In this document: in pieces, positions 32,806-62,197 of the stretch
Numbering within the stretch: the stretch's first letter is position 1
Layout: the number at the start of each line of letters is the position of its first letter
Origin: Shigella phage CT01
Length of the DNA: 64,000 bases
Sequence record: OK018184
Direction: 5' to 3' (one strand)
Notes under the pieces: model-generated
What the model was told of the DNA's origin: nothing
The model's input: the letters and a program-made list of their open reading frames with translations, nothing else
The model's database searches: none
Program-made: the position numbers and the translations under genes

Positions 32806-33022
32806 TATAAATTCTCTTTTAAATGAAAATGCAGGACTTATTGGCATTGCCTGCGCAAGCCCTCAAGGGGAACATAGGTTTTTGAATATTTAACGACCAG
32901 GATAACCATAAACCCGTCATCATACCTTATAGCTCTTATCTGTTGTACACCGTTAGCTTAAAGGTTCCGGGTTCGATTTCTCGAGGATAAGATATATACT
33001 AAGGCAGTGAATCTCCAATAAA

Positions 33023-39349: not shown

Positions 39350-39412
39350 CATAAAGCCCTCATGTTATGTCAGTAAGTCTACTATAACACAACACGAGGG
39401 ACTTGTAAACAG

Positions 39413-42179: not shown

Positions 42180-42309
42180 CTAAATTTTCCTTATCATCAG
42201 AACCTCCCATACATCTAGGGATTATATGATGTGTCTCTTTATATTCTGATAAAGATTCCCGAGCCTGAGCTCGGGAAATTAGGTCATTATAGATTTTTTG
42301 ATAATTCAT
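42121..42309 (-). pseudogene. Truncated HNH homing-endonuclease remnant (mobE-like position between nrdA and nrdB)
   Basis: 62 aa ORF starting 7 nt after nrdA stop; contains HNH-like HHIIPRCMGGSDDKENLV, then runs out of frame into nrdB. Confidence 0.55.
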
Positions 42310-43091: not shown

Positions 43092-43239
43092 ATCTTGATA
43101 GTCTAACAGGTTATCAAGTGCACGTACTTGAACTTCTGCTAATTCATTAATTTTATCTTGGTCTTGCCAATCGAAGTTATCCAACACAAATGCAGATAAC
43201 GTGCACAATCCAATTTCAGCATCAGGACTATTCACATCA
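43092..43239. repeat. 148-bp direct repeat, left copy (nrdA codons for DVNSPDAEIG...LLDYQD)
   Basis: Identical to 44099-44246. Confidence 0.9.
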
Positions 43240-44098
43240 GTTCGACGCGTTGTTCTTGAAGACGGATCACATACTTGGACTGCTAAACAAGATTTTAATG
43301 GCGCAGTTAACTTTAACTCTACTGTTAACCTTAATAACACTACCACATTTAAAACAGAAGTTAAATTCCGCTCGTTGAATGCATTCCGTATGTATGGCGG
43401 AAAATTTGGTACATTTTTACGTAATGATGGAGAGAGTCTTTATATTCTTTCCACCGACGAAGATGATCAAGATGGAAACTTTAATACAAATAGACCTTTC
43501 CGTTATGAATTAAGAACTGGTGATGTTACTTTGGGTGGTGTTAGTGGTGCTAACGTTTTAAAATTAAAACGTGATTCTCTCACCGCATTTTTTGGCGGTG
43601 ATATTAACATGAAAGGCACGATGACTTTTGACGCCGGACGTTTAGGGTCACGAGATTATTTTAAATTTAACCATTGGGGTGATAGCAATAACGCTCGTGA
43701 TAACATCATCCAGTTAGAAGATAGTCAAGGCGCTCATTTTTCCACTGAACGTACTTTAGCGACTGGTGCAATTAAAACTCGTTTCTTTGGCGAAACATTC
43801 ACTGATGGTACATTATACCTAAATCAGATGAATAATAGCTCTGAACGATTCCATATCAATAATTGGGGAAATTCAGAAGTTGGTCGCGCGGCAGTGATGG
43901 AAGTCGGTGATTCCAAAGGTTATCACTTCTATACGGAACGCAGGACAGATAACAGTTTGACATTTGATGTTGCTGGCACTTTTACCGTGCATGGACCTAC
44001 CGGGATCACTATCAAAAACTCTGTTGGTGCTCGCCACATCTGGTTTAAAGATGATAGCGATGCAGAAAAGGCTGACAGTTTAATTACCTTCCGCAGTG
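43240..44098 (+). other. Insertion within nrdA: 835-bp fragment of tail fibre gene 37 (sense on + strand) plus 24-bp filler of unknown origin
   Basis: 43240-44074 matches gene 37 at 60946-61436 except that it also contains the 344 bp absent there; 44075-44098 matches neither locus. Confidence 0.85.
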
Positions 44099-44246
44099 AT
44101 CTTGATAGTCTAACAGGTTATCAAGTGCACGTACTTGAACTTCTGCTAATTCATTAATTTTATCTTGGTCTTGCCAATCGAAGTTATCCAACACAAATGC
44201 AGATAACGTGCACAATCCAATTTCAGCATCAGGACTATTCACATCA
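44099..44246. repeat. 148-bp direct repeat, right copy
   Basis: Identical to 43092-43239. Confidence 0.9.
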
Positions 44247-45570
44247 TTTGTTGGAATAGCAATTTCACAACACAAGTTACTCTGGCGAATAGGCGCCTTT
44301 TCACGAATAAACGGAGTATAGTTATTCGTATTATCAATGAACTGCACATAAATCCTTGCTGTTCCTGATCGTTCAGTCATGAGTAATTCAAATAGTTCAC
44401 GGGCTTTAATACGCTTTTTGCGAATATTAGGGTCTTTTTCTGCTGCTTCGTATAATTCGCAGAAACGGTCTTGGTCTTTAAAATAAGAATAATAAAGCTC
44501 ACCACCCATTTCATGCGGACTGAACAAAGTAATGTAATCGTTCTTTCCAAAACGTTCCATCATCAAATCATTCAACTGGACGCCATAATCCATATGACGG
44601 ATACGGTTTTCTTCTACACCTTTGTTATTTTTCAAAACGAGAAGATTTTCAACTTCCAAATGCCAAATAGGATAATAAGCAGTAGCAGCGCCGCCACGAA
44701 TTCCGCCCTGTGAACATGATTTAACAGCAGTCTGAAAATGTTTCCAAAAAGGAATAACACCAGTATGGCGTACTTCACCTGTGCCAATCTTAGAACCTTC
44801 GGCACGAATCATACCAACGTTAATACCGATTCCAGCTCGTTTTGAAATATACTCAACAATTGAAGCAGAAGCCTTATTGATAGACTTCAGCGAATCGCCT
44901 GCCTCAATAACAACGCATGAACTAAATTGCCGAGTCGGAGTACGACATCCAGCCATAATAGGAGTAGGCAGTGAAATCTGTCGAGTAGATACTGCTTCAT
45001 AAAAACGAATAACATGTTTTAATCTATCAACAGGTTCATCTTGATGTAATGCCATTCCAATAGTCATAAATGCAAACTGAGGAGTTTCATAAATTTGACC
45101 AGTGGTTTTATCTTTAACGAGATATTTTTCTTTTAATTGCATCGCCCCGGAATAAGTAAATTCCATATCCCGCTCATGCTTAATTTTTGATTCTAAAAAT
45201 GTAATTTCTTCTGCTGAATATTTTGACAACAATTCAGGGTCGTATTTACCTTCATTTACACAGTAAGAAATATGGTCAATAAATGAACGTGGTTCATATT
45301 GCCCGTAAACATGCTTACGAAGAGCAAACATTAAACACCGTGCAGCTACGTATTGATAATCAGGCTCTTCAACTGAAATAGAATTCGCAGCAGCCTTAAT
45401 TACAATGGTTTGAATGTCATCAGTGGTCATTCCATCACGGAGATATGATTTAATATTTTCATATAATTCATAAGGATCTACAGATGTTCCTTCAGCTGCC
45501 CAAGATAAAACTTTAATAATTTTTTGCGGGTCAAAGCTTTGAGAAACACCACTACTTTTGATAACATTAA

Positions 45571-45897
45571 TTAATTGCATAAGTCCTCAACTTGAAAATC
45601 GTCTTTAAACAATCGGTTAACTATATGAGCTATTATATCACCATGACACGGCTTTGGTTTACATGTGCATCCTAGCCTCATTCCACGTAAAGGCTCTAAA
45701 TGTGCTTTAGTTATTTCTCCGGATTTAATTCGACGTATAAAATCTTTTTTGAATAATTCAATGGCAGCCTCCCGGCTGCCAGCATCTTTACCGACGTAAT
45801 TTCCCCAAAATGTACCACGGTGAATATTAACATCAAAGTCGGATTTATATTTATTCACTACTTGGCATAGACGGCCCGCGCGGTGATAATTTGTCAT
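45571..45897 (-). CDS. Hypothetical protein upstream of nrdA
   Basis: 108 aa ORF; [11 protein letters not shown] cysteine motif. Confidence 0.55.
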
Positions 45898-46114
45898 ATT
45901 GTTTTTCCGTTAAAACAGTAATATCATAATAACAATCTGAAGAAGTTTTAACCGTAGAAATTTTATTATCAAAATACTCACGAGTCATTTTATGAGTATA
46001 ATATTTTTTGCCATAAATTATAATAGGCTGATTTGGTCCTGGAACTTCTAACTCGCTTGGGTTAGGAAGTGTAAAAAGAACTACACCAGAAGTATCTTTA
46101 AATCGTAAAATCAT
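45851..46114 (-). CDS. Hypothetical protein upstream of nrdA
   Basis: 87 aa ORF. Confidence 0.5.
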
Positions 46115-46137
46115 ATATCCTCACAATTAATAATTAA

Positions 46138-46998
46138 TTACACCGCCATTTTTCCTTTAATAGGAGGGTGAGATACATAGTTGTTAAGAACAAAATTATG
46201 CGGCTTTGCGAATTGACTCAACCAAAATACCTGTGATTCTGTGTCCCATTCATCAAATTCATCTGGAAATTTTAATTGTAATTCGCATAAATCCATAGGT
46301 TCACGACGCAAAATTTCTTTACATTGTTCTACGTGATTCATATAGATATGAGTATTACCACCAGAAAATATCAAATCTCCTGGAATAAGATTACACATCT
46401 TAGCTACAATATGAACTAATGCAGCATATGATGCAATGTTGAATGGCAAGCCCAAGAACACGTCAACACTTCTTTGATACCACTGCAAATCCAAATAGCC
46501 ATTACGCACATTAAACTGATAGAACATATGACAAGGCGGTAATGCCATTTGCTTGAGTTCAGCTGGATTCCATGCTGAAACAATTTGACGTCTATCATTT
46601 GGCAGTTTTTTAATACGATCAACAACTTCTATAATTTGGTCTACACCGCCAAAATCACGCCATTGTTTTCCATAAATTGGACCAAGTTCACCGCTATGAT
46701 ATCCTAAATCTTTTGCTTGATTTTCGTAATTTTCATCCCAGACTGTTTTGCCTTGAATTAATGAATCATGCTGAATTAATCGTAAATCATTTACGTTAGT
46801 ACTTCCTGATAAAAACCATATTAGCTCAGCAATGCAAGCTTTCCAGGCGAGCTTCTTAGTTGTTACTGCAGGAAAACCTTTACTTAAATCCCAGCGTAAT
46901 TTAGTACCGAACAGAGCAATTGTTCCTGTGCCTGTTCGGTCATCAGTTTCATAGCCATTTTCAAAAATGTCTTTAATTAAATCTTGGTATTGTTTCAT
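46138..46998 (-). CDS. td: Thymidylate synthase (uninterrupted, no group I intron)
   Basis: 286 aa continuous ORF with ThyA motifs (LPPCH, active-site Cys); T4 Td is 286 aa but is intron-split in T4. Confidence 0.93.
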   Translation of the reverse strand: MKQYQDLIKDIFENGYETDDRTGTGTIALFGTKLRWDLSKGFPAVTTKKLAWKACIAELIWFLSGSTNVNDLRLIQHDSLIQGKTVWDENYENQAKDLGYHSGELGPIYGKQWRDFGGVDQIIEVVDRIKKLPNDRRQIVSAWNPAELKQMALPPCHMFYQFNVRNGYLDLQWYQRSVDVFLGLPFNIASYAALVHIVAKMCNLIPGDLIFSGGNTHIYMNHVEQCKEILRREPMDLCELQLKFPDEFDEWDTESQVFWLSQFAKPHNFVLNNYVSHPPIKGKMAV

Positions 46999-47043
46999 TT
47001 AGTACCTTATATAAATTATAATACATTTTATGAAGCTAAATAA

Positions 47044-47403
47044 TCAATACGGTTTAGCGTCAAATTTTCTTTCAATTTCAGGCGTAAAATATAATTCTTT
47101 ACCACGCTTGGAAAAGCGACCAATAATATGATAATTATTCTCATCAAACGTGATATTGCCAATATCCATAGCTTTCAACCAAATATCGATATTTCTGTCA
47201 AGCTTTATATCAAAATTCCAATACGGAGAACTATTACCGAAAATACTGCAAGCGGATTCAGTGAAACAACTACTATAAATCTTGTCTTTAGGAACTACTA
47301 ATTGATAGACGCCTTTAATAAACTGAGGACCCTGCCATTTTGGCTGTTTCGCGTCTTTTTCTAATAGAATAGGGTAATAATTAAAGCTCATATTTTCCGC
47401 CAC
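47044..47403 (-). CDS. Hypothetical protein inserted between frd and td
   Basis: 119 aa ORF; no counterpart recalled at this position in T4, where frd and td overlap. Confidence 0.5.
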   Translation of the reverse strand: MAENMSFNYYPILLEKDAKQPKWQGPQFIKGVYQLVVPKDKIYSSCFTESACSIFGNSSPYWNFDIKLDRNIDIWLKAMDIGNITFDENNYHIIGRFSKRGKELYFTPEIERKFDAKPY

Positions 47404-47411
47404 GTGTTATT

Positions 47412-48238
<827 letters not shown>

Positions 48239-48246
48239 ATTATCTC

Positions 48247-48582
48247 CTAATATAAAGGATCGGGAACATATCCACTAGCTTTAATCATTTTGATTAATGT
48301 TAACATTCCTTTATTAACTGCTCGTGAGATTTCATCAAAAACTTCATCACTAAAAAGTTCTAACACGCCCTTCTGAACTTTTAATTTACACCCAATAATT
48401 TCGTCATCGCCTATAGTAAATTCGTTTCCGCCAATTCCACCGAAAAACTTAATTGCACCAGTCAACTGTCTTCCACGAGAATATGGGTCGTGTGATAAAG
48501 TAATATGAGTCACCCCAGGTACAGTTTTAAATTGACAGCGGATGTTTACTTGGGCAATTCCAGTTACGTGAATGTCAGACAT
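48247..48582 (-). CDS. Hypothetical protein (frd.x region)
   Basis: 111 aa ORF. Confidence 0.55.
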   Translation of the reverse strand: MSDIHVTGIAQVNIRCQFKTVPGVTHITLSHDPYSRGRQLTGAIKFFGGIGGNEFTIGDDEIIGCKLKVQKGVLELFSDEVFDEISRAVNKGMLTLIKMIKASGYVPDPLY

Positions 48583-48606
48583 AATATTTTCCTCAAACAG
48601 ACTTTT

Positions 48607-49029
48607 TCACAATTTTCCAATCAGCTTTAAACTGTTCAACGTCAGAATGATAAATCCAGAATCCTGCGCTTTCTCCATCCTCATAAAGAGGGCATCCATC
48701 GCATTCATCTTCCCATCCCATATCACGTAAAAGATGTTCGGCTTTTTCAACGAGATCAGAATCTTTACCGATGATATTAAAATACCATTTACCTCTAACT
48801 TCTGAATCTTTTCTTTAGTAGCCTTTTCCATACTTCTGAACTTAACCAATAGAGGATAGGTATCGACACCCATAACTAAACTGGTTACAAGACTGTGTTC
48901 ACCCACAAGCCATAACGAATACGTTTGAATATCGAGTCCGTAATTTCTGTCTTTATGGACCCGTACACCCATCACTTCAAATTTCTCACTAGCTTTTTCT
49001 ACCGCATCCAGGAAATCATCTTTAGTCAT
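48607..49029 (-). CDS. Hypothetical protein (frd.x region); may be two shorter ORFs
   Basis: ORF track 154 aa; likelier start at internal ATG (MTKDDF...); C-terminal half has odd composition. Confidence 0.4.
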   Translation of the reverse strand: MTKDDFLDAVEKASEKFEVMGVRVHKDRNYGLDIQTYSLWLVGEHSLVTSLVMGVDTYPLLVKFRSMEKATKEKIQKLEVNGILISSVKILISLKKPNIFYVIWDGKMNAMDALFMRMEKAQDSGFIILTLNSLKLIGKL

Positions 49030-49030
49030 A

Positions 49031-49432
49031 TTAGGCCTTAAAAGTTTTTCGCAAAAGTTCAATGATTTCATCTACATTGTTTTCGTCTACAATGCAGTGA
49101 ATTTTTGTTACGCCAGAAATCTTGTCTTCGACTTCATCTTCTTCAGAAGTCGGTTCTTTATACTCGCGGAAACAATAAAACTCTTCTTCACTAAGTTCAA
49201 AATAATCATCACCTATGCCATCATTATAATAGATTTCGCCATTAGCACAAATGATTTCGGTTACATAATCAAAGCCATCTAAACTTGATATTGATTTAAC
49301 TTCAAACCAACCGCCATTTTCTTGAATGATGCTGACCATATTAGCATTTGATGAACTAATATCAATGAAAGATTTAATACGGTGTGGATTTAACTCATAT
49401 TTTTTGCCGATTTCCATTTTGATTTTCCTCAT
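49031..49432 (-). CDS. Hypothetical protein
   Basis: 133 aa ORF. Confidence 0.55.
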   Translation of the reverse strand: MRKIKMEIGKKYELNPHRIKSFIDISSSNANMVSIIQENGGWFEVKSISSLDGFDYVTEIICANGEIYYNDGIGDDYFELSEEEFYCFREYKEPTSEEDEVEDKISGVTKIHCIVDENNVDEIIELLRKTFKA

Positions 49433-49462
49433 TTTAACGGGACTGTAATAGCCCCTTGATAA

Positions 49463-49711
49463 TTATTGTTCAATCAGTCCCATATAAAATTCTGCGTCTT
49501 CAGCATCCATGCCATCGCAATATTCATTAGCCATAAAGCGGGTGAGGTCTTCAAGAGGACCTTCAATAACGATTTGAATACTCCAAAACTTAGAATCTTG
49601 TACTCTTGTGATACTAAGTTCAGGATAACGATTACGAATAATTTCTTCAATATATTCAAAATCAACGATGTCAATATCAACTTTAGCCATATTATTTTCC
49701 TCTTTAATCAT
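49463..49711 (-). CDS. Hypothetical protein downstream of gene 32
   Basis: 82 aa ORF. Confidence 0.55.
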
Positions 49712-49793
49712 CAGCAGTATTGCCGATAGTTGTATAGTACCATAGAAGAACAGAGATGTAAACAGTTTTGTGAAAAATTTTTGAAATAAAAAA

Positions 49794-49812
49794 GGGGACC
49801 TCTAGGGTCCCC
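49794..49812 (-). terminator. Rho-independent terminator downstream of gene 32
   Basis: GGGGACC-TCTA-GGGTCCCC hairpin followed by T-run on minus strand. Confidence 0.65.
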
Positions 49813-49834
49813 AATTAATTAGTAATATAATCTA

Positions 49835-50743
49835 TTAAAGGTCATTCAAAAGGTCATCCAGATCCGTGTCATCAGCACTAGATGAACTGCCAGAGCTTGA
49901 GCTCATAAAATCATCTTCAGTTTTTGTTTTGAAGTCATCAACATTGAATGCATCCAAATCATCAGCAACTTTATCAGCTTTCTTAGCGGCAGTTGCTGCG
50001 GCACCGCCCATAGCAGCAGTTCCCATAACTTGACTGAACTTAGTGCTCAGTTCTTCAAACGATTTGAATTTATCTTTAGAAGTCATTTCAGAAAGGTCAA
50101 CCATTTGTTCGAACAGTTCTTTCTGGAAAGATTCATCATCAATGTTTGGAATCGCAGATTGATTCAGGAATTTAGATTCATCGTAGTTACTAAAACCAGA
50201 AACTTGTTTAACTTTCAGTACAAAGTTAGCACCTTCCCACGGACAAGTTACATCAACCGGAGTTTCACCCATTTCAACATCAACTGCAATCATTGCATTG
50301 ATTTTATCCCAGATTTTCTTACCAAAACGGTATTTAAATACTTTACCTTCATTTTCTGGAGCAGCTGGGTCTTTTACTACAAGAATGTTAGCCCAGTAAG
50401 AAGTTTTACGTTTAACAAGACCGTACTCTTTATTGTCAGTGTTATACAAATCATTTTTACTGATGTACTGACATACTGGACAAGAATCGTAATCACCGTG
50501 GGTAGATGAACAGTTTTCAATATACCATTTACCATTTTTCTTGAAACCGTGATTTACAAGAATTGCGAATGGTGCTTGTTCATCATTTTTAGACGGAAGA
50601 AAACGAATTACTGCTTGACCGTTACCCGCATTATCGAGTTTCAGTTTCCACTCGCCTTTATCTTCAGAAGAAAAACTACCTTTATTTCCAGCCAGTTTAG
50701 CCATTTGTGCAGCGAGTTCAGCAGTAGATTTACGTTTAAACAT
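49835..50743 (-). CDS. 32: Single-stranded DNA-binding protein gp32
   Basis: 302 aa; matches recalled T4 gp32 ([17 protein letters not shown]..., C-terminal acidic serine-rich tail). Confidence 0.95.
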
Positions 50744-50990
50744 TTTTATTTCCTTTTTAATTTAATTAACAGTTGGTGCTATGACGATGTATGACCTCAT
50801 AGCTGGTCAGTGAGATAATTATAATCTATTTATAATAAGCAATTAATACTTACAAGATTTCACAGTTTCAATGAAAACACTTTTGGCTTTCTGTGAATCA
50901 ATATTTAAAATTTTTCTATAAGCCTTTAACTTTATAGAATAATTATTCCAGACTAAATTATCAGTCTGTTCATCATGTTTATCAATTATA
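50453..50990. repeat. 538-bp direct repeat, copy 1 (gene 32 first 97 codons + gene 32 leader + last 49 codons of gene 59)
   Basis: Identical to 51054-51591. Confidence 0.9.
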
Positions 50991-51344
50991 ATTCGAACTG
51001 ATCTGTGTTTGTGCATTTGGGCATATGTTTGCGCGCGTAAAGCAGGCTGGTCGATTTTTACTGATGTACTGACATACTGGACAAGAATCGTAATCACCGT
51101 GGGTAGATGAACAGTTTTCAATATACCATTTACCATTTTTCTTGAAACCGTGATTTACAAGAATTGCGAATGGTGCTTGTTCATCATTTTTAGACGGAAG
51201 AAAACGAATTACTGCTTGACCGTTACCCGCATTATCGAGTTTCAGTTTCCACTCGCCTTTATCTTCAGAAGAAAAACTACCTTTATTTCCAGCCAGTTTA
51301 GCCATTTGTGCAGCGAGTTCAGCAGTAGATTTACGTTTAAACAT
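50982..51344 (-). pseudogene. Truncated duplicate of gene 32 5' end (97 gp32 codons fused to 23 junction codons)
   Basis: 120 aa ORF identical to gp32 through ...VCQYISKN, then diverges in the 63-bp filler; carries a second copy of the gene 32 leader. Confidence 0.75.
50991..51053. other. 63-bp junction filler of unknown origin between the two repeat copies
   Basis: Does not match flanking phage sequence; higher GC than its surroundings. Confidence 0.7.
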
Positions 51345-51591
51345 TTTTATTTCCTTTTTAATTTAATTAACAGTTGGTGCTATGACGATGTATGACCTCA
51401 TAGCTGGTCAGTGAGATAATTATAATCTATTTATAATAAGCAATTAATACTTACAAGATTTCACAGTTTCAATGAAAACACTTTTGGCTTTCTGTGAATC
51501 AATATTTAAAATTTTTCTATAAGCCTTTAACTTTATAGAATAATTATTCCAGACTAAATTATCAGTCTGTTCATCATGTTTATCAATTATA
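51054..51591. repeat. 538-bp direct repeat, copy 2
   Basis: Identical to 50453-50990. Confidence 0.9.
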
Positions 51592-52097
51592 TTTAAAAAC
51601 GAATCAAGCAAGATAAACGTCTCAAACGAAATTATATTCGATTGAAGTAGTTTAAAAATATAACTTGATTGAACTTTTGGATTATACTCAAAGATTTCTT
51701 TAAAAGCAGAAACTTCAACTTTTTTACTAAAATAGTAAATATTGCGAATATCTTCTTCAAACTTAAATTTAATTTGCTTTAAGCGTCCGATATATTCACG
51801 ATAAAACACAAGTGCATCAGCGTCAGAGATGTCACCAATCCAAGCATCTTGGTTAGCAACAAGATTGCTTATAAAGATTAAAGCAAGTTCCTTTAATTTA
51901 TATTTTTCTGATAACTTCTGGAAAAAATACTTATCCCTTCGCTTTTGATAAGCGGCATCAGACACCCGCATGCACCAATTATACTTAATTACATCATACT
52001 TTCCATTCATATGTTGTTTTATCATTAAGTATAATTTATAAACTGATTTACCATCAATATATCTTTCACCACCAGCAGGCATGCGGAGTTTAATCAT
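51444..52097 (-). CDS. 59: Helicase loader gp59
   Basis: 217 aa, T4 gp59 length and sequence. Confidence 0.92.
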   Translation of the reverse strand: MIKLRMPAGGERYIDGKSVYKLYLMIKQHMNGKYDVIKYNWCMRVSDAAYQKRRDKYFFQKLSEKYKLKELALIFISNLVANQDAWIGDISDADALVFYREYIGRLKQIKFKFEEDIRNIYYFSKKVEVSAFKEIFEYNPKVQSSYIFKLLQSNIISFETFILLDSFLNIIDKHDEQTDNLVWNNYSIKLKAYRKILNIDSQKAKSVFIETVKSCKY

Positions 52098-52432
52098 AGT
52101 AGAAAATCTAAGGTATTAGTTTTTTCACAACGAACAACAGAAGGACGTAAAAGATTTTCGTCAATAGCTTCTGACTGAATTTTTTCAATTATACCCGAAG
52201 GAATAAATTTAGCAAATTGAGTTTCAGGAATAGAATTTTCTTCCAAGAATGCTGTTGTAGCTTCAAGATAACTCATTCCAAACTCTTCTACCATTTTTTC
52301 GATAATAAATCCATTTTCTTGGCGGTCAAGAAGCTTTGCTATTTCATCCTTTTCTTTCTTAATTGAAAGTTCTTTTTCTGAAAGACCGGTCTCATCGACC
52401 GGACGAATATCATTTAGAGAAAACTGTGTCAT
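52094..52432 (-). CDS. 33: Late transcription co-activator gp33
   Basis: 112 aa from ATG at 52432 (MTQFSLNDIRP...), T4 gp33 length. Confidence 0.88.
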   Translation of the reverse strand: MTQFSLNDIRPVDETGLSEKELSIKKEKDEIAKLLDRQENGFIIEKMVEEFGMSYLEATTAFLEENSIPETQFAKFIPSGIIEKIQSEAIDENLLRPSVVRCEKTNTLDFLL

Positions 52433-52679
52433 AAAGTTCAACTACCTCTTCAGTTTCAGCTTCAAACACATCACGGTTATCTTTATGATACAAAGCTAAA
52501 AGACGATTAAACATCTTACCATCAACGCCAAGTTCATCTTTGGCGCGAATTCGAATATCTTTAATCAATTCATTATAACCAGAAATTTTCAGTTTATGAT
52601 CAGATGCTTCTTTGATAAATTTAGCTAAGTCTTCGCCATGGATAGCTTCATCAAATTCAACCATTTCTTTTTTAGCCAT
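52410..52679 (-). CDS. dsbA: DsbA, dsDNA-binding late transcription enhancer
   Basis: 89 aa, T4 DsbA length; synteny. Confidence 0.85.
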   Translation of the reverse strand: MAKKEMVEFDEAIHGEDLAKFIKEASDHKLKISGYNELIKDIRIRAKDELGVDGKMFNRLLALYHKDNRDVFEAETEEVVELYDTVFSK

Positions 52680-52687
52680 TATTCACC

Positions 52688-53605
52688 TCAAAATTCATTA
52701 ATGCTATTAGTTAATTTAGAAAGACCCGCTTTTACAAAATATGAATAAATTTTGCCACGCGGTGGTAATTTATATGAATTATAGTAATTCACAATGTTTG
52801 AAGCAATATTATCAGGAATATAATCAAAATCAATTAGAACTAAATTTTCTTTATATCGATTATATTCAGATTCAGTGAGAAGCACCTTAGCTTGCTCACG
52901 GTCATTAGCAATAGCTTCAACAACAGATGTTTTCATTGAAGGAGTTCGTTCACCTTCAACTCTGGTAAACCAAAAGTCAGATCGTACTTTAACTGAAGCA
53001 ACGTTATCCTTTTTATCACCCTTAAGAATTTTAGTCATACAGTCAATTTCAGCAGAACCGCTTTTAATTTTAACCCATTTCTTGTGCATCGGTGACCATT
53101 GCTTAACATTTGGGTATTTGTGAAGTTGCGTAAAGTCACCATCCGATGAAATGATTAAAATCTTGTGTCCTTCTAAAGAGAACTTTTTAACAAGAACAGC
53201 GATATGATCATCTGCTTCATACTTATCAATATCCATAACGATGTATGGCATATAAGCTTTCAATTCATCTATAACTTTATGGCTGGATTCAAAATAACCT
53301 TCCCAGTCCCAAGTAGATTCTTCTCGTGCTTTTCCGCGGTTTTTCTTATAATAATAAGCAAAATCACGACGCCAGTATCCGGATTTTGCGTTATCGATAC
53401 ACAGTACAATTTTAGTGTATCCAAGAGTTTTTGCTTTTTTGACATTAAACTTAATTGAGTTCAATATCAAATGACGAACCATTGATAAGTTAATTTTTTC
53501 TTTATCTGGAAAGTTTACTAGAGCAGTTGAAAGCGCAATTTGACTAAAGTCAATTAAGCAAATTCCTTCTTTGTAATCTTCATCCAGCATCATTTCTAAA
53601 TCCAT
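52688..53605 (-). CDS. rnh: RNase H (5'-3' exonuclease, FEN family)
   Basis: 305 aa from ATG at 53605 (MDLEMMLDEDYKEG...), T4 RNase H length. Confidence 0.92.
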   Translation of the reverse strand: MDLEMMLDEDYKEGICLIDFSQIALSTALVNFPDKEKINLSMVRHLILNSIKFNVKKAKTLGYTKIVLCIDNAKSGYWRRDFAYYYKKNRGKAREESTWDWEGYFESSHKVIDELKAYMPYIVMDIDKYEADDHIAVLVKKFSLEGHKILIISSDGDFTQLHKYPNVKQWSPMHKKWVKIKSGSAEIDCMTKILKGDKKDNVASVKVRSDFWFTRVEGERTPSMKTSVVEAIANDREQAKVLLTESEYNRYKENLVLIDFDYIPDNIASNIVNYYNSYKLPPRGKIYSYFVKAGLSKLTNSINEF

Positions 53606-53667
53606 ATGAACCTCGTTCAATTAGTGAGATTTCTATTATATACTATCCAAATCTTAAAGTAAACAAG

Positions 53668-53675
53668 TATAAATA
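53668..53675 (+). promoter_or_regulatory. Late promoter (TATAAATA) for gene 34
   Basis: Exact TATAAATA about 35 nt upstream of gene 34 ATG. Confidence 0.6.
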
Positions 53676-53709
53676 CTTATTATTGAAAACACAATAGGAG
53701 CCCGGGAGA

Positions 53710-56700
53710 ATGGCCGAGATTAAAAGAAAGTTCAGAGCAGAAGACGGTCTGGACGCAGGTGGCGATAAAATAATCAACGTAGCTTTAGCTGATCGTACCG
53801 TAGGAACTGACGGTGTTAACGTTGATTACTTAATTCAAGAAAACACAGTTCAACAATATGATCCAACTCGTGGATATTTAAAAGATTTTGTAATCATTTA
53901 TAATAATCGTTTTTGGGCAGCAACGGATAATATTCCAAAACCTGCTGGAAGTTTTAATAGAATTCGTTGGAAAGCATTGCGTACTGATGCCGTATATACA
54001 ACCGTATCATCTGGACCGTATCAATTAAAATCCGGAGAAGCAATTTCAGTAGATACATCAGTTGGTAATGACATTGAGTTTAATTTACCACCTTCTCCTC
54101 TTGATGGAGAAACCGTAATAATTCAAGATATTGGTGGAAAACCTGGTATAAATCAGGTTAAAATAAATTCTTCAAATCAGAGTATTGTTAATTTTAGAGG
54201 TGAACAGGTACGTTCAGTTCTAATGACTCATCCAAAGTCACAAATGATATTCATTTTTAATAATCGTTTGTGGCAAATGTATGTTGCTGATTATAGCAGA
54301 GAAGCTGCGATTGTTACTCCATCGACTGCATATCAAGCACAATCTAATGATTTTATCGTGCGTAGATTTACTTCCGCTGCGCCGATTAATATTAAACTTC
54401 CGAGATTTGCTAATCATGGCGATATTATTAATTTCGTTGATTTAGATAAATTAAATCCACTTTATCATACAATTGTCACGACATATGATGAAACAACTTC
54501 AGTACAAGAAGTTGGAACTCATTCTATTGAAGGCCGTACATCGATTGACGGTTTCTTGATGTTTGATGATAATGAAAAATTATGGAGATTGTTTGACGGG
54601 GATAGTAAAGCACGTTTACGCATTATAACAACTAATTCTAATATTCGTCCAAATGAAGAAGTTATGGTATTTGGTGCGAATAACGGAACAACCCAAACAA
54701 TTGAACTTCAGCTTCCAACCGATATTTCCATTGGTGATACTGTTAAAATTTCCATGAATTACATGAGAAAAGGACAAACAGTTAAAATCAAAGCTGCCGG
54801 TGAAGATAAAATTGCTTCTTCAGTTCAATTGCTGCAATTCCCAAAACGTTCAGAATATCCACCTGAAGCTGAATGGGTGACTGTACAGGAATTAGTTTTT
54901 AACGGTGAAACTAATTATGTTCCAGTTTTACAACTTGCTTATATAGAAGATTCTGACGGAAAATACTGGGTTGTACAACAAAACGTTCCAACAGTTGAAA
55001 GAGTCGATTCTTTAAATAATTCTACTAGAGCAAGATTAGGCGTAATTGCTTTAGCTACACAAGCTCAAGCAAATGCTGATTTAGAAAATTCTCCGCAAAA
55101 AGAATTAGCAATTACACCAGAAACATTAGCTAACCGTACTGCTACAGAAACTCGTAGAGGTATCGCAAGAATAGCAACTACTGCTCAAGTAAATCAGAAC
55201 ACTACATTCTCTTTTGCTGATGACCTTATCATCACTCCTAAAAAGCTGAATGAAAGAACTGCTACAGAAACTCGTAGAGGCGTTGCTGAAATTGCCACGC
55301 AACAAGAAACTAATACAGGTACTGATGATACTACAATCATCACTCCTAAAAAGCTTCAAGCTCGTCAAGGTTCTGAATCATTATCTGGTATTGTAACCTT
55401 TGTATCTACTGCAGGAGCTACTCCAGCTTCTAGTCGTGAATTAAATGGTACAAATGTTTATAATAAAAACACTAATAATTTAGTTGTTTCGCCTAAAGCT
55501 TTGGATCAGTATAAAGCTACTCCAACGCAACAAGGTGCAGTAATTTTAGCAGTTGAAAGTGAAGTAATTGCTGGACAAAGCCAAGAAGGATGGGCAAATG
55601 CGGTTGTAACGCCAGAAACGTTACATAAAAAGACATCAACTGATGCAAGAATTGGTTTAATTGAAATTGCTACGCAAAGTGAAGTTAATACAGGAACTGA
55701 TTATACTCGTGCAGTCACTCCGAAAACTTTAAATGACCGTATAGCAACTGAAAGTTTAAGTGGTATAGCTGAAATTGCTACACAAGTTGAATTCGACGCA
55801 GGCGTCGACGATACTCGTATCTCTACACCATTAAAAATTAAAACCAGATTTAATAGTACTGATCGTACTTCTGTTGTTGCTCTATCTGGATTAGTTGAAT
55901 CAGGAACTCTCTGGGACCATTATACCCTTAATATTCTTGAAGCAAATGAGACACAGCGTGGTACACTTCGTGTAGCTACACAAGTTGAAGCTGCTGCAGG
56001 AACATTGGATAATGTTCTAATAACTCCTAAAAAGCTTTTAGGTACTAAATCTACTGAAGCGCAGGAAGGCGTTATTAAAGTTGCAACTCGGTCTGAAACT
56101 GTAGCTGGAACGTCAGCAAATACTGCTGTATCTCCAAAAAATTTAAAATGGATTGTGCAGAGTGAACCTACTTGGGCAGCTACTACCCTGGTAAGAGGTT
56201 TTGTTAAAACTTCATCTGGTTCAATTACATTCGTTGGTAATGATACAGTTGGTTCTACGCAGGACTTAGAACTATATGAGAAAAATAACTATGCAGTATC
56301 ACCATATGAATTAAACCGCGTATTAGCAAATTATTTGCCGTTAAAAGCAAAAGCTGTAGATAGTAATTTATTAGATGGTTTAGATTCACTCCAGTTCATT
56401 CGTAGGGATATTGCGCAGACGGTTAATGGTTCACTAACCTTAACACAGCAAACGAATCTGAGTGCCCCTCTTGTATCATCTAGTACTGCTACGTTCGGTG
56501 GATCAGTTTCGGCAAATAGTACATTAACTATTTCTAATACTGGAACAGCAACTCGTCTGATTTTTGAGAAAGGACCTCAAACTGGGACGAACCCAGCTCA
56601 AACGATGACAGTCAGAGTGTGGGGAAATCAATTCAGCGGTGAATCGGACACAACACGTTCTACTGTATTTGAAGTTAGTGATGAAACGTCTAGTCACTTT

Positions 56701-57579
56701 TATTCTCAGCGCAATAAAACTGGTAATATAACATTTAATATAAACGGTACAGTAACGCCGATAAATGTGAATGCTTCAGGAACATTGAATGCGAATGGCG
56801 TTGCAACATTCGGTAGTTCAGTTACTGCTAATGGCGAATTTATCAGTAAATCATCGAATGCTTTTAGAGCAATAAACGGTGATTATGGATTCTTTATCAG
56901 GAATGGTGGCAGCATCACACATTTTATGCTCACTGAATCTGGCGACCAGACCGGTGGATTTAATGGATTACGTCCTTTATCTATTAATAATGCATCTGGT
57001 CAAGTAACGATTGGTGAAAGCTTAATCATTGCCAAAGGTGCTACTATAAGTTCAGGTGGTTTAACTGTCAACTCGAGAATTCGTTCTCAGGGTACTAAAA
57101 CCTCTGATTTATATACTCGTGCGCCAACATCTGATACTGTAGGATTCTGGTCAATCGATATTAATGATTCAGCCACTTATAACCAGTTCCCGGGTTATTT
57201 TAAGATGGTTGAAAAAACTAATGAAGTGACTGGGCTTCCATACTTAGAACGTGGCGAAGAAGTTAAATCTCCTGGTACATTGACTCAGTTTGGTAACACG
57301 CTTGATTCGCTTTACCAAGATTGGATTACTTATCCAACGACTCCAGAAGCACGTACCACTCGCTGGACACGTACATGGCAGAAAACTAAAAACTCTTGGT
57401 CAAGTTTTGTTCAGGTATTTGACGGAGGTAACCCTCCTCAACCTTCAGATATAGGAGCGATCCCATCTGATAATGGAATAATAGGTAATCTTACTATTCG
57501 CGATTTCTTGCGAATTGGTAATGTTCGCATTATTCCTGACCCAGTGAATAAAACTGTTAAATTTGAGTGGATTGAATAA
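53710..57579 (+). CDS. 34: Long tail fibre proximal subunit gp34
   Basis: 1289 aa, T4 gp34 length; repeated ...TETRRG.A.IAT... modules. Confidence 0.93.
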   Translation: MAEIKRKFRAEDGLDAGGDKIINVALADRTVGTDGVNVDYLIQENTVQQYDPTRGYLKDFVIIYNNRFWAATDNIPKPAGSFNRIRWKALRTDAVYTTVSSGPYQLKSGEAISVDTSVGNDIEFNLPPSPLDGETVIIQDIGGKPGINQVKINSSNQSIVNFRGEQVRSVLMTHPKSQMIFIFNNRLWQMYVADYSREAAIVTPSTAYQAQSNDFIVRRFTSAAPINIKLPRFANHGDIINFVDLDKLNPLYHTIVTTYDETTSVQEVGTHSIEGRTSIDGFLMFDDNEKLWRLFDGDSKARLRIITTNSNIRPNEEVMVFGANNGTTQTIELQLPTDISIGDTVKISMNYMRKGQTVKIKAAGEDKIASSVQLLQFPKRSEYPPEAEWVTVQELVFNGETNYVPVLQLAYIEDSDGKYWVVQQNVPTVERVDSLNNSTRARLGVIALATQAQANADLENSPQKELAITPETLANRTATETRRGIARIATTAQVNQNTTFSFADDLIITPKKLNERTATETRRGVAEIATQQETNTGTDDTTIITPKKLQARQGSESLSGIVTFVSTAGATPASSRELNGTNVYNKNTNNLVVSPKALDQYKATPTQQGAVILAVESEVIAGQSQEGWANAVVTPETLHKKTSTDARIGLIEIATQSEVNTGTDYTRAVTPKTLNDRIATESLSGIAEIATQVEFDAGVDDTRISTPLKIKTRFNSTDRTSVVALSGLVESGTLWDHYTLNILEANETQRGTLRVATQVEAAAGTLDNVLITPKKLLGTKSTEAQEGVIKVATRSETVAGTSANTAVSPKNLKWIVQSEPTWAATTLVRGFVKTSSGSITFVGNDTVGSTQDLELYEKNNYAVSPYELNRVLANYLPLKAKAVDSNLLDGLDSLQFIRRDIAQTVNGSLTLTQQTNLSAPLVSSSTATFGGSVSANSTLTISNTGTATRLIFEKGPQTGTNPAQTMTVRVWGNQFSGESDTTRSTVFEVSDETSSHFYSQRNKTGNITFNINGTVTPINVNASGTLNANGVATFGSSVTANGEFISKSSNAFRAINGDYGFFIRNGGSITHFMLTESGDQTGGFNGLRPLSINNASGQVTIGESLIIAKGATISSGGLTVNSRIRSQGTKTSDLYTRAPTSDTVGFWSIDINDSATYNQFPGYFKMVEKTNEVTGLPYLERGEEVKSPGTLTQFGNTLDSLYQDWITYPTTPEARTTRWTRTWQKTKNSWSSFVQVFDGGNPPQPSDIGAIPSDNGIIGNLTIRDFLRIGNVRIIPDPVNKTVKFEWIE

Positions 57580-57587
57580 GAGGTATT

Positions 57588-58703
57588 ATGGAAAAATTTA
57601 TGGCAGAGTTTGGACAAGGATATGTCCAAACGCCATTTTTATCGGAAAGTAATTCAGTAAGATACAAAATAAGCATAGCTGGTTCTTGCCCGCTTTCTAC
57701 AGCAGGACCATATGTTAAATTTCAGGATAACCCTGTCGGAAATCAAACATTTAGCGCAGGTCTTCATTTAAGAGTTTTTGACCCTTCAACAGGAGCATTA
57801 GTTGATAGTAAGTCATATGCTTTTTCTACTTCAAATAATACTACATCAGCTGCTTTTGTTAGTTTCATGAATTCTTTGTCAAACAATAGACTTGTTGCTA
57901 TATTAACTAGTGGAAAGGTTAATTTTCCTCCTGAAGTGGTATCTTGGTTAAAAGGAGCAGGAACTTCAGTTTTTCCATCAGATTCCGTATTGTCAAGATT
58001 TGACGTATCATATGCTGCTTTTTATACTTCTTCTAAAAGAGCTATTGCATTAGAGCATGTTAAACTAAGTAATAGAAAAAGCACAGATGATTATCAAACT
58101 ATTTTAGATGTTGTATTTGATAGTTTAGAAGACGTCGGAGCTACGGGATTTCCTAAAAGAACATATGAAAGTGTCGAGCAATTTATGTCAGCGGTTGGTG
58201 GAACTAATAACGAAATTGCGCGATTACCAACTTCAGCTGCTATAAGTAAACTATCTGATTATAATTTAATTCCTGGTGATGTTCTTTATCTTAAAGCACA
58301 GTTATATGCTGATGCTGATTTACTTGATCTTGGAACTACAAATATATCCATTCGTTTTTATGATGCATCAAATGGATATATTTCTTCAACACAGGCTGAG
58401 TTTACTGGACAAGCTGGGTCTTGGGAATTAAAGGAAGATTATGTAGTTGTTCCTGAAAATGCAGTCGGATTTACTATATATGCGCAGAGAACTGCTCAAG
58501 CTGGTCAAGGCGGAATGAGGAATTTAAGCTTTTCTGAAGTATCAAGAAATGGCGGCATTTCAAAACCTGCCGAATTTGGCGTCAATGGTATTCGTGTTAA
58601 TTATGTCTGTGAATCGGCTTCACCTCCAGATATAATGGTACTTCCTACACAAGCCTCTTCTAAAACTGGCAAAGTGTTTGGGCAAGAATTTAGAGAAGTT
58701 TAA
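57588..58703 (+). CDS. 35: Long tail fibre hinge protein gp35
   Basis: 371 aa; synteny. Confidence 0.88.
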   Translation: MEKFMAEFGQGYVQTPFLSESNSVRYKISIAGSCPLSTAGPYVKFQDNPVGNQTFSAGLHLRVFDPSTGALVDSKSYAFSTSNNTTSAAFVSFMNSLSNNRLVAILTSGKVNFPPEVVSWLKGAGTSVFPSDSVLSRFDVSYAAFYTSSKRAIALEHVKLSNRKSTDDYQTILDVVFDSLEDVGATGFPKRTYESVEQFMSAVGGTNNEIARLPTSAAISKLSDYNLIPGDVLYLKAQLYADADLLDLGTTNISIRFYDASNGYISSTQAEFTGQAGSWELKEDYVVVPENAVGFTIYAQRTAQAGQGGMRNLSFSEVSRNGGISKPAEFGVNGIRVNYVCESASPPDIMVLPTQASSKTGKVFGQEFREV

Positions 58704-58708
58704 ACTGA

Positions 58709-58731
58709 GGGAGCCTTTGGGTTCCCTTTTT
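58709..58731 (+). terminator. Hairpin terminator after gene 35
   Basis: GGGAGC-loop-GTTCCC hairpin followed by T-run. Confidence 0.5.
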
Positions 58732-58734
58732 CTT

Positions 58735-58742
58735 TATAAATA
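58735..58742 (+). promoter_or_regulatory. Late promoter (TATAAATA) for gene 36
   Basis: Exact TATAAATA 24 nt upstream of gene 36 ATG. Confidence 0.65.
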
Positions 58743-58765
58743 ATATTAAAATAAAGGGGCATATA

Positions 58766-59458
58766 ATGGCTGATTTAAAAGTAGGTTCAACTGTGGGTGG
58801 ATCTGTCATTTGGCATCAAGGAAATTTTCCATTGAATTCAGCCGGTGACGATGTACTCTACAAATCATTTAAAATATATTCAGAATATAATAAACCGCAG
58901 GCAGCTGATAACGATTTCGTTTCTAAAGCTAATGGTGGTACTTACACCGGTCCAATTACTATTAATTACGGGGTAAATAGTTATCTTCAATTAAGTAATA
59001 ATGAAACCCCTATCCGAATTCGTTCTGGTGGCGGCACCGGTAATACTCTTGTAATTGGTGGATCTTCTGGTGGTATTAGTTTTAGACCTGCAGGTAGTGA
59101 AATCACTACTGGACAAATTAGTTTTAGACCTGCAGGTAGTGAAATCACTACTGGACAAATTACTATTACGCCAGAAGGTTTGACAACATTCACCAAAGCT
59201 GTAAAGGCTCCATCTGTAACTGTTACATCTACTCCTTCCGCAGCATCAGATGCTACTCGTAAAGATTATGTTGATGGAGCAATAAATACTGTTACAGCAA
59301 ATGCAAACTCTAGAGTGTTACGATCTGGTGACACCATGACAGGAAATTTAACTGCGCCAAACCTTTTTTCACAGAATCCTGCATCTCAACCTTCACACGT
59401 TCCACGATTTGACCAAATCGTAATTAAGGATTCTGTTCAAGATTTCGGCTATTATTAA
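58766..59458 (+). CDS. 36: Long tail fibre proximal-distal connector gp36 (with 14-aa tandem duplication)
   Basis: 230 aa; T4 gp36 is 221 aa; contains a perfect 42-bp tandem repeat. Confidence 0.88.
59076..59159. repeat. 42-bp perfect tandem duplication (2 copies) inside gene 36
   Basis: 59076-59117 is identical to 59118-59159; in frame ([14 protein letters not shown] x2). Confidence 0.9.
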
Positions 59459-59466
59459 GAGGACTT

Positions 59467-62197
59467 ATGGCTACTTTAAAACAAATACAATTTAAAAGAA
59501 GCAAAACCGCAGGTCAACTTCCTGCTGCTTCAGTATTAGCCGAAGGTGAATTGGCTATTAATTTAAAAGATAAAACAATTTTCACAAAAGATGACTCAGG
59601 CAATGTTATAGAATTAGGTTTAAAATATGGAGGAACAATTGATGGTTCTTTAACTGTTAATGGAAATATAATTGGAAATTTAACAGGTAACGCTGCAACT
59701 GCAACGAAATTAAAAACAGCACGAAAAATTAATGGTATATCCTTTGATGGGTCAAAAGATATCACGCTAACTCCATCCGACATAAATGTCAATAGCACAA
59801 CGTTTATAAAAAATAACGGCGAATTACCTGTTGATGCTAATTTAGATACGTATGGGCCTGTTGAAGAATATCTTGGAGTTTGGTCGAAAGCAACTTCAAC
59901 CAACGCTCAACCAGCAAATAAATTTCCAGAAAACAATGCTGTAGGTGTGCTAGAAGTATTTGTGGCCGGTCAATTTGCTGGTACTCAGAGATATACAACT
60001 AGATACGGAAATGTTTATATTCGTTCCTTGACTGCTACATGGAACGGAGTAAATGGTCCGTGGAGTGTGTGGCGAAATATTCAATCCGGTACTCGTTCAC
60101 TGTCAACAACAATTGATCTTAATGATCTAGGAGGTGCTGAACATCTTGGTTTGTGGCGAAATAGTTCAAATTCCATTGCTACCTTTGACAGAAATTTCCC
60201 AGAAGAGGGGTCGTCAGCTCAAGGTCTTTTGGAAGTATATGAAGGTGGAAACTATTCTCGTACACAAAGATATACAACCAGATTTGGTGTTGTTTATACT
60301 CGCTGTCTTACTGCTGCGTGGGATGCTTCTGCGCCTAAATGGGGACCGTGGCAACAAGTCGGTAATGTCACACCGGCGACTTTCTATGACGGAAACCTGA
60401 ATGATTTTAAAACTCCTGGGTTATATAATATTTTAGGCACTGATGCCGTTATTAATTGTCCTACAGGCGAAGGTTTACCAGCCGTTATTGTTGGTTTGCT
60501 GGAAGTTAAACAGCGTGCTTCTGGCGGTGCTATTTTCCAAAAATTTACTACTGCCGGAACAGGTGCAACTACCCGCGATCGTATTTTTGAGCGCGCATAT
60601 ACCGGCGGTGTGTGGGGTGAATGGAACGAAGTATACACATCTTATTCTCTACCAATTACTTTGGGTATGGGCGGTATTAAATCTAACTTAGCAGAGTTAG
60701 ACTGGCAAGCATTTGATTTTGTTCCTGGTAGTATGTTTAGCGTTCCTTTGAACAAAATAAAGAACATGCCAGCTAATATGGATTGGGGTACGATTGACGG
60801 AAACTTAATTATGTTTTCTGTTGGTCCTAGCGAGCACACCAGCACAGGACGTACTGTTCAGGTTTGGCGTGGAACTGTATCCCAGACAAACTATCGTTAT
60901 TTTGTCGTTCGTGTATTCGGTAATCCAGGGAGTAGAACATGTACAGTTCGACGCGTTGTTCTTGAAGACGGATCACATACTTGGACTGCTAAACAAGATT
61001 TTAATGGCGCAGTTAACTTTAACTCTACTGTTAACCTTAATAACACTACCACATTTAAAACAGAAGTTAAATTCCGCTCGTTGAATGCAAGGCGCTCATT
61101 TTTCCACTGAACGTACTTTAGCGACTGGTGCAATTAAAACTCGTTTCTTTGGCGAAACATTCACTGATGGTACATTATACCTAAATCAGATGAATAATAG
61201 CTCTGAACGATTCCATATCAATAATTGGGGAAATTCAGAAGTTGGTCGCGCGGCAGTGATGGAAGTCGGTGATTCCAAAGGTTATCACTTCTATACGGAA
61301 CGCAGGACAGATAACAGTTTGACATTTGATGTTGCTGGCACTTTTACCGTGCATGGACCTACCGGGATCACTATCAAAAACTCTGTTGGTGCTCGCCACA
61401 TCTGGTTTAAAGATGATAGCGATGCAGAAAAGGCTGTTATCTGGGCTACAGATGAGGGTATTTTACATATTCGCAATAATCATGAGGGTTCATTTAGTCA
61501 TCACTTCCAGGGTGCAATGATTAAACTGGAAGGGCGTGTTCCTTATGGTGCAGCAAAAGGGCTTATTCGAGGCGAGATAGACGGTGGTGCATATGTTGCA
61601 TGGAGAGACCGCCCTGCTGGTTTGTTGGTTGACTGCCAGAAAAGTATTGACAGTGCTCATGCTGTTTGGAAAGCGGTTGATTGGGGGCGTCAATATATCG
61701 CTGCTATGGACGTTCATTGTCCGGGTGATGGTAATAATACTGCGGCAGCGGTTCTTCATGTTCAGGCTGCTGATTATCAATTCCATGCAAGCGGAGAATT
61801 TCATGCCACTGGTAACGGGAACTTTAACGATGTGTATATTCGTTCCGATGGTCGTCTGAAAATTAATGTTGAAGATTATACAGGAAATGCGTTAAGTTTG
61901 ATCGGCAAACTGAAAGTGAAAACTTACGATAAAGTTAAATCTCTTAAAGACCGTGAAATTATCGGTCACGAGATCGGCATTATCGCACAGGATTTACAAG
62001 AAATATTACCGGAAGCTGTAAAATCTTCAAAGGTTGGCAATCTTGATAATCCAGACGATGTTCTGACAATTTCTAACTCTGCTGTGAATGCTCTTTTAAT
62101 TAAGGCTATTCAGGAAATGAGTAAAGAAATTAAAGAATTGAAAACTCCTTTCTTTACTAAAATTGCTCGCAAAATTAGTAAATATTTTAAATTCTAA
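59467..62197 (+). pseudogene. 37: Long tail fibre distal subunit gp37, frameshifted by a 344-bp internal deletion
   Basis: Split into ORFs 59467-61110 and 61085-62197; the missing 344 bp (junction at 61089/61090) is present in the copy inside nrdA; C-terminus has a chaperone-like domain. Confidence 0.85.

Follow-up and report, generated by a model that had tools for sequence, protein, structure and literature searches.

Rearranged genes of the CT01 window

A stretch of 64,000 nucleotides (nt) from the genome of Shigella phage CT01 (sequence record OK018184), called the window below in its full length, was analysed with emphasis on the interval 43092-62197, where nrdA, the adjacent genes 59 and 32 and the tail fibre gene 37 are rearranged. 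The window belongs to a Tequatrovirus (T4-like phage), and its nearest public genome is that of Shigella phage SF2-1 (PQ571308.1), with 98-100% identity across most of the window, followed by Enterobacteria phage P922. Genes nrdB, the mobE remnant, nrdA, td, frd, 32, 59, 33, dsbA and rnh lie on the minus strand of the interval, and genes 34, 35, 36, 37, 38 and t on the plus strand. The rearrangements fall into a class that is already known, that of illegitimate recombination or template switching, and the inserts carried at their junctions are unusual for T4-type phages.

A preceding reading of the letters alone, the sequence-only reading, had listed three events in this interval and ascribed to them one architecture, local duplication flanking short non-homologous filler. 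Its observations were partly confirmed and its interpretation was partly supported: all three events are present, and the architecture fits those in nrdA and between genes 59 and 32, but the gene 37 deletion has neither duplication nor filler and appears not to be an independent event, and three further rearrangements had been missed. The ancestral structure was read from the alignment to SF2-1, repeats were established by self-comparison of the window and by a repeat scan, and the additional rearrangements emerged from comparison with SF2-1 and P922. The public phage comparison set comprised 50,697 records, and further searches covered IMG/VR contigs, E. coli genomes and metagenome contigs.

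The nrdA duplication and the deletion in gene 37

A segment of nrdA is present twice and encloses a displaced piece of gene 37; the features of this locus and of the matching site in gene 37 are as follows.

43092-43239: nrdA duplicated segment, copy 1; 148 nt, 100% identical to 44099-44246 (E value 1e-73)
43238-44074, plus strand: ectopic copy of 837 nt from the interior of gene 37 (distal subunit of the long tail fibre); antisense to nrdA
43384-43725, plus strand: middle of the ectopic copy; gene 37 sequence absent at the gene 37 locus (344 bp including the 2-nt overlap), sole copy in the window
44075-44098: filler ACAGTTTAATTACCTTCCGCAGTG; 24 nt, 42% G+C, source not found
44099-44246: nrdA duplicated segment, copy 2; 148 nt
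61088-61089, plus strand: gene 37 deletion junction; 344 bp gone, 2-nt CA overlap, frameshift

The nrdA insertion had been described as 148-bp repeats around a 24-bp filler. The exact repeats and the 24-nt stretch were found, but the gap between the repeats amounts to 859 nt, formed by an 837-nt templated segment of gene 37 and then the 24 nt. Both 148-nt copies align to nrdA of SF2-1 (L001 5721-5868), and CA, the final two nucleotides of copy 1, is common to the start of the gene 37 copy. This ectopic copy is identical to SF2-1 gene 37 at 837/837 positions (L001 21458-22294), keeps the orientation of native gene 37 and lies 17.7 kb from it as a direct repeat. Deleting 43240-44246 in silico restored a NrdA protein of 754 amino acids (aa), 100% identical to that of SF2-1, and the insertion was absent from all public phage records searched. 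The 24-nt filler could be traced neither to the window, its local flanks or the SF2-1 genome nor to E. coli genomes, phage records or IMG/VR, the last three of which gave chance matches only. Integration of a plasmid by single crossover, as with T4 insertion/substitution vectors, was rejected, as the 859 nt between the nrdA repeats are accounted for by gene 37 sequence and the 24 nt, with no backbone. The nrdA breakpoint at which re-entry would have occurred falls at the start of an imperfect palindrome at 43092-43122 (CTTGATAGTCT...AGGTTATCAAG), a predicted hairpin, and this position may be a coincidence.

The gene 37 deletion with 2-bp microhomology claimed by the sequence-only reading was recovered as a loss of 344 bp with the CA overlap at 61088/61089. 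As a result, gp37 is split into two open reading frames (ORFs), 59467-61110 (541 native residues followed by 6 aberrant ones) and 61085-62197 (370 residues). All public relatives carry the 344 bp, their matches coming in two pieces set apart by the exact indel length. The missing 344 bp fall wholly within the 837-nt segment copied into nrdA, and the flanks of the ectopic copy are repeated with 100% identity at gene 37, 43238-43383 corresponding to 60944-61089 (146 nt) and 43726-44074 to 61088-61436 (349 nt). Exchange of 60944-61436 for 43238-44074 yielded a gp37 of 1024 aa, identical to that of SF2-1 at 1021/1024 positions, so that both disrupted genes, nrdA and gene 37, are restored by simple edits. 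Because an independent 344-bp deletion would fall inside a given 837-bp segment of a genome of ~168 kb with a probability of only ~0.003 (our own arithmetic), these sequence relations indicate that the gene 37 deletion and the nrdA insert must be connected.

The simplest and likeliest connection would be that, of the two repeat-flanked loci, the wrong one received the unique 344-bp middle in the assembly and that the actual phage has an intact gene 37. Since the flanks of 146 and 349 nt are identical at both loci and the middle is present at one of them only, an assembly graph cannot phase them without reads or read pairs spanning 349 nt; such flanks would give a repeat with two entries, two exits and a bubble, a pattern that short-read assemblers may be expected to phase unreliably. 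If the loci were mis-phased, the genome would hold an intact gene 37 together with an nrdA gene interrupted by 146 + 349 nt of gene 37 and the 24 nt, and the phage would be viable. Alternatively, homologous exchange between the copies may have given some members of the population a deleted gene 37. The assembled arrangement is exactly what a double crossover of gene 37 with its ectopic copy would yield, although genomes null for gene 37 that arose in this way should remain a minority. The inactivation of an essential gene, as the sequence-only reading had it, is true of the out-of-frame junction as drawn, but with the 344-bp middle present in the nrdA copy it is probably an assembly-level problem, confined to one ambiguous repeat-flanked segment and leaving the whole set of rearrangements unaffected. 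A seemingly lethal deletion in a deposited phage genome can mirror an ectopic repeat mis-phased by the assembler, and the split genes 37, nrdA and nrdB should not be annotated as natural features without read support.

That the genome is true as drawn, and thus belongs to a gene 37-null defective phage rescued by gene conversion from the nrdA patch or by a helper genotype supplying fibres, we consider improbable. The ectopic copy does span the deletion completely, its perfectly matching flanks (146 and 349 nt) suffice for T4-type recombination, and the repaired gene is full length; moreover, only a rescuable gene 37 deletion could persist, which would account for the coincidence of the two loci. 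However, recombinants with a functional gene 37 would displace the null genotype in a few rounds of growth, and the latter should not be the consensus. The gp37 fragments have no plausible function, and expression of the patch is unsupported, no late promoter motif having been found within 42000-45700.

Duplication across genes 59 and 32 with a partly host-matching insert

The second duplication, with an insert containing sequence of the host chromosome, comprises the following features.

50453-50990: 538-nt duplicated segment, copy 1; first 291 nt of gene 32, 59-32 intergenic region with late promoter, last 148 nt of gene 59
50827 (minus strand) and 51428: late promoter motif TATAAATA, one per duplicated copy
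50991-51053: junction insert; 63 nt, 49% G+C against ~35% for the phage
51017-51042: exact match to mdtD, an E. coli/Shigella chromosomal gene, inside the 63-nt insert; 26 nt
51054-51591: 538-nt duplicated segment, copy 2; 538/538 identical to copy 1
50982-51344, minus strand: new ORF, gp32 residues 1-97 followed by 23 residues from the insert/gene 59 remnant, behind the duplicated late promoter motif

Self-comparison at 100% identity bore out the 538-bp repeats and 63-nt filler of the earlier description, and full-length genes 32 and 59 persist despite the duplication. The junction was absent from the public phage records, and the 63-nt insert had no match in these records or in the SF2-1 genome. 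The 26-nt mdtD match is present in 5417 of 5426 E. coli genomes (E value 2e-5 against 28 Gb), and among 185,579 species representatives an exact 25-mer of it was found in E. coli/Shigella-type genomes only; host DNA was therefore available at the 59/32 junction. A database search of the fillers, which the sequence-only reading had proposed, thus traced part of one filler to the host and found no source for the other. On the left of the mdtD core, 26 nt gave a degraded alignment to adjacent mdtD sequence (19/26 with four 1-nt gaps; shuffle p = 0.0125, post hoc), and on the right the similarity to mdtD was not significant. In the plasmid collection, in a search that covered the 63-nt insert, the chromosomal mdtD match was the only one obtained.

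An mdtD orthologue of another enterobacterial host was considered as the source of the 63-nt insert, one frame of which had codon-like differences, and was rejected on the database searches and on a protein motif. A third-position-degenerate codon scan of metagenome contigs returned nothing, nor did an exact 31-mer. The motif MPNFTT is conserved in all seven MdtD homologues in which it could be located, and the insert would encode MPKCTNT; the homologue search, made with a 117-aa query, retrieved proteins of up to ~205 aa and no full-length MdtD of 471 aa, its retrieval being apparently length-dependent, which limits its negatives.

Other origins were rejected for both fillers. Snap-back synthesis or copying of nearby sequence left shared words no longer than expected by chance, copying from elsewhere in the phage was contradicted by the lack of any template in the window or the whole SF2-1 genome, and additional patches from the mdtD neighbourhood were at chance level. 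Exact matches in IMG/VR contigs were found neither for the two fillers nor for two of the junctions. In sum, the 24-nt filler and ~37 nt of the 63-nt insert lack a template detectable in the phage, E. coli, phage records or viral contigs by searches in which patches shorter than ~17 nt are undetectable.

The gp32(1-97) part of the new ORF includes the zinc-finger residues, and the product could interfere with gp32 function.

Three further rearrangements

Comparison with SF2-1 and P922 revealed one additional deletion and two tandem duplications.

42174-42181, minus strand: mobE-nrdB deletion junction; 621 bp lost, mobE codon 45 joined to nrdB codon 12
29679-29864, minus strand: 93-bp tandem duplication; two exact units, in-frame, no microhomology, in ORF 29644-30576, which stays open
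59075-59162, plus strand: 42-bp tandem duplication in gene 36; exact, in-frame, 4-nt (ATTA) microhomology

The 621-bp deletion takes most of mobE along with the ATG and first 11 codons of nrdB, and its junction lies inside AGTTGA(A)T, an imperfect homology of 7/8 with 2 nt exact. In the region of ORFs 42121-42309 and 41028-42179 (minus strand), MobE residues 1-45 are fused out of frame to nrdB. Together with the nrdA event, this deletion disrupts both subunits of the aerobic ribonucleotide reductase in this genome. None of the three rearrangements occurs in any of the 50,697 phage records, relatives again matching in two pieces an indel-length apart, and no comparable rearrangement was seen in the first 29 kb of the window, which hold structural genes. 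Exact homology at the traceable junctions ranges from 0 to 4 nt (none at the 93-bp duplication, 2 nt at the gene 37 deletion, the nrdA-to-gene 37 transition and the mobE-nrdB deletion, 4 nt in gene 36), in keeping with the little or no homology noted previously at the breakpoints.

T4 can do without mobE and the aerobic ribonucleotide reductase genes. All the rearrangements except that of gene 37 should be tolerable, because they are in-frame, leave essential genes intact or lie in nrdA, nrdB and mobE. Such a distribution is more readily explained by selection acting on a replicating lineage than by random chimeras or arbitrary editing.

A sequencing or assembly artefact would explain the same junctions by chimeric molecules or reads (ligation chimeras, unsplit long reads, template switching in amplification) or by the consensus of a mixed population, which the sequence-only reading had also named, and the plaque-forming phage would then have few or none of them; we regard this as a minor but serious possibility. 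The genome as drawn lacks the functional gene 37 needed by a plaque-forming T4-type phage, the filler sequence is mostly untraceable, and the mdtD-like stretch resembles a noisy copy, with one-base gaps and substitutions round a perfect core, as in an unpolished segment read once. Overlapping fragments joined back to back would also imitate a duplication flanking junk. On the other hand, the phage sequence flanking the junctions is free of errors, with 100% identity between copies and up to 100% to SF2-1, and neither the exact in-frame duplications of 93 and 42 bp nor a mobE-nrdB deletion at a 7/8 homology has the look of a chimera. Nor would random chimeras be expected to prevail in the consensus five or six times over or to leave essential genes untouched, and the fillers are not known to resemble sequencing adapters.

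Deliberate engineering, a further candidate of the sequence-only reading, or editing of the sequence after assembly appears very unlikely. Several clean, exact rearrangements do lie within 35 kb, and a dispensable gene holding a piece of gene 37, with the corresponding deletion in gene 37 itself, recalls the design of a recombination reporter; moreover, the base composition of the fillers (42% and 49% G+C) is unlike that of the phage. Yet the hallmarks of a construct (selectable marker, vector backbone, recombinase site, cloning scar) are all lacking, the plasmid-collection matches of the 63-nt insert are limited to chromosomal mdtD, and the breakpoints lie at natural-looking micro- or imperfect homologies. 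The small in-frame duplications would serve no design purpose, and the backbone is a wild mosaic related to SF2-1 and P922, not a laboratory strain.

Homing-endonuclease breaks as a possible trigger

Two genes of free-standing homing endonucleases are present in relatives and absent or defective here. A segG-like gene of 210 aa occupies the 59-32 spacer of P922, DCP2 and a Logan contig and is absent from this genome and from SF2-1, and mobE, which is intact in SF2-1 and P922, is truncated in this genome. The target of SegG is gene 32 (PMC2988022, Table 1). In gene 32, a cluster of five substitutions at 50500-50519 (second copy at 51101-51120), some of them non-synonymous, separates the segG-positive relatives from this genome and SF2-1. 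The cluster is situated 323-342 bp from the spacer boundary at 50842, within the duplicated 50453-50990, and it looks like an endonuclease target-site polymorphism. SegG reportedly cuts ~332 bp from its insertion site (Liu et al. 2003). As to co-conversion, no donor-like patch was seen beside the 59/32 breakpoints in a comparison with four relatives. A SegG break as the trigger of the 59/32 duplication is plausible and may be taken as a lead, the cleavage being putative. The MobE nick has been mapped to nt 122-126 of nrdB, ~100 bp from the end of the mobE-nrdB deletion and ~1 kb from the nrdA event, so that it does not coincide with the nrdA breakpoints.

The illegitimate repair of homing-endonuclease breaks in T4 (Parker, Belisle and Belfort 1999, as far as this work is presented in PMC2988022) shares with the present events copying repair and rejoining at microhomologies. 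The 59-32 and nrdA-mobE-nrdB regions are classic sites of free-standing endonucleases, and the putative SegG target lies inside the 538-bp duplication. In contrast to such repair, no endonuclease gene was acquired here, the nrdA breakpoints are distant from the MobE nick by ~1 kb, and cleavage in this genome is putative only.

Mechanism and comparison with known systems

We see about even chances that the rearrangements arose recently by low-homology (illegitimate) recombination within a real T4-like lineage, in which gene 37 was mis-phased or exchanged, and not as three replicas of a single designed structure. The illegitimate recombination suggested by the sequence-only reading gains from the 0-4 nt of homology at the junctions and from the nature of the inserts, one from another phage locus and the other with host chromosomal sequence. 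Template switching or illegitimate break repair, both known in kind, would be the best mechanism.

Late replication of T4-type phages is recombination-dependent. All six rearrangements are compatible with a single process that ends in different ways. A 3' end in extension may have quit its template, either at a stalled or collapsed fork or as a broken end in recombination-dependent replication, and the detached end would then have copied or captured other DNA, namely the 837 nt of gene 37 with the 24-nt filler at nrdA, and the 63 nt with their host mdtD sequence at 59/32. If the end then rejoined its own locus 148 or 538 bp behind the point of exit, this length would be duplicated in tandem, with foreign DNA between the copies. 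The same process without the detour could have produced the 93-bp and 42-bp tandem duplications, and re-entry ahead of the exit the mobE-nrdB deletion. The gene 37 'deletion' would be no separate event and would belong with the ectopic copy: in the mis-phased version, the path might have led from nrdA to 146 nt of gene 37, over a 344-bp hop at CA to 349 nt of gene 37, then to the 24 nt and back to nrdA 148 bp upstream, as a single multi-hop event with both traceable hops via CA. In an equivalent scheme of break repair, each end of a break would be lengthened by copying a homologue before the two were joined with captured fragments in between, which would duplicate the surroundings of the break too; the two versions cannot be separated here.

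The amplifications of T4 at microhomologies (rII, genes 16-18 and dmd-tifA; Kumagai 1993, Wu 1991, Srikant et al. 2022, PMC9391042) share with this genome a head-to-tail duplication with deletions elsewhere, and in both the events are recent and lineage-specific, with non-recurrent end points. The head-to-tail repeats of 148, 538, 93 and 42 bp and the deletions of 621 and 344 bp relative to the relatives found here are of this type. In T4, however, tandem amplifications with compensating deletions occur at homologies of 6-10 bp with nothing inserted (PMC9391042), whereas homology here is 0-4 nt, with an imperfect 7/8 at the mobE-nrdB junction alone, and foreign or ectopic DNA is inserted at two junctions, 63 nt at one and 859 nt at the other; nor is an amplified gene under obvious selection apparent.

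The scheme of template switching outlined above is that of fork stalling and template switching/microhomology-mediated break-induced replication (FoSTeS/MMBIR; Hastings et al. 2009, PMC2621351), which shares with our data complex, non-recurrent events in which a duplication is accompanied by a distant templated insert in direct orientation. Inserts templated from another locus were found here in the 837-nt gene 37 copy and the 26 nt of host mdtD, and the likeness extends to the microhomology of 2-4 nt and possibly to several hops per event (nrdA to gene 37, within gene 37, and back to nrdA). Unlike the present case, the model concerns cellular chromosomes, and neither filler here could be traced to templates over its whole length. 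Insertion of a transposable element also places an insert between direct target repeats, but its repeats have a fixed length of 2-14 bp against 148 and 538 bp here, and the present inserts are a gene 37 fragment and host-like sequence. A transposon or insertion sequence was rejected, as there is no transposase, the repeat scan found no terminal inverted repeats at the insert ends, and the target duplications are too long.

Several points weigh against the favoured explanation. Exact direct repeats of 538 bp should vanish fast under the very active recombination of T4-type phages, and these repeats must therefore be very recent or selected. Purely templated switching predicts a source for the 24-nt filler and ~37 nt of the insert, and none was identified; and the flanks of the mdtD core are only imperfect copies of mdtD, where faithful copying would differ. 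Six recent rearrangements per 64 kb, all absent from public genomes, are many for a wild phage. Finally, the published T4 duplications use homologies of 6-10 bp (PMC9391042) as against the 0-4 nt found here.

A more far-reaching version of the template-switching account, which we hold unlikely, is that a wild-type-derived T4-like lineage was captured in a burst of such rearrangements, stitching host DNA and ectopic phage fragments into new junctions. The burst might even be self-inflicted, as the promoter-equipped gp32(1-97) could disturb the single-strand-binding protein and thereby raise illegitimate recombination. If true, the burst would represent a directly observed route by which strictly lytic phages gain host sequence and new gene fusions. 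The junction-insert signature, well described for cellular chromosomes, has hardly been documented in virulent phages. Provided that the junctions are real, they would give a T4-type example, at the sequence level, of duplications with templated and host-derived junction inserts, and would bear on how virulent phages pick up foreign DNA and create new ORFs.

Other features of the window

In an exact protein look-up, truncated gp37, truncated NrdA, gp34 and gp36 had no counterpart on record, and the exact match of gp35 was restricted to ordinary segG-positive relatives. At window positions 2245-2253, compared with SF2-1 153955-154599, ~640 bp annotated as 'putative head morphogenesis protein' are extra in SF2-1 and absent from the window. 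The stretch 32923-33000 is a variable intergenic region, in which SF2-1 is longer by 179 bp with a 3-nt overlap at the junction, and P922 differs too. Insertions of 12 nt relative to SF2-1 were seen at 15123 and 63017 (TCTATTTATATA and TTTTGAATAAAT, respectively), the second between gene 38 and the holin gene. A diverged internal repeat (25011-25583 and 27105-27680, 72-75% identity) corresponds, by position against SF2-1, to two adjacent genes of Alt-like ADP-ribosyltransferases. A direct repeat of 53 nt with 92% identity, at 23474-23526 and 39358-39410, is present at both sites in SF2-1 as well and is thus an ordinary shared intergenic element.

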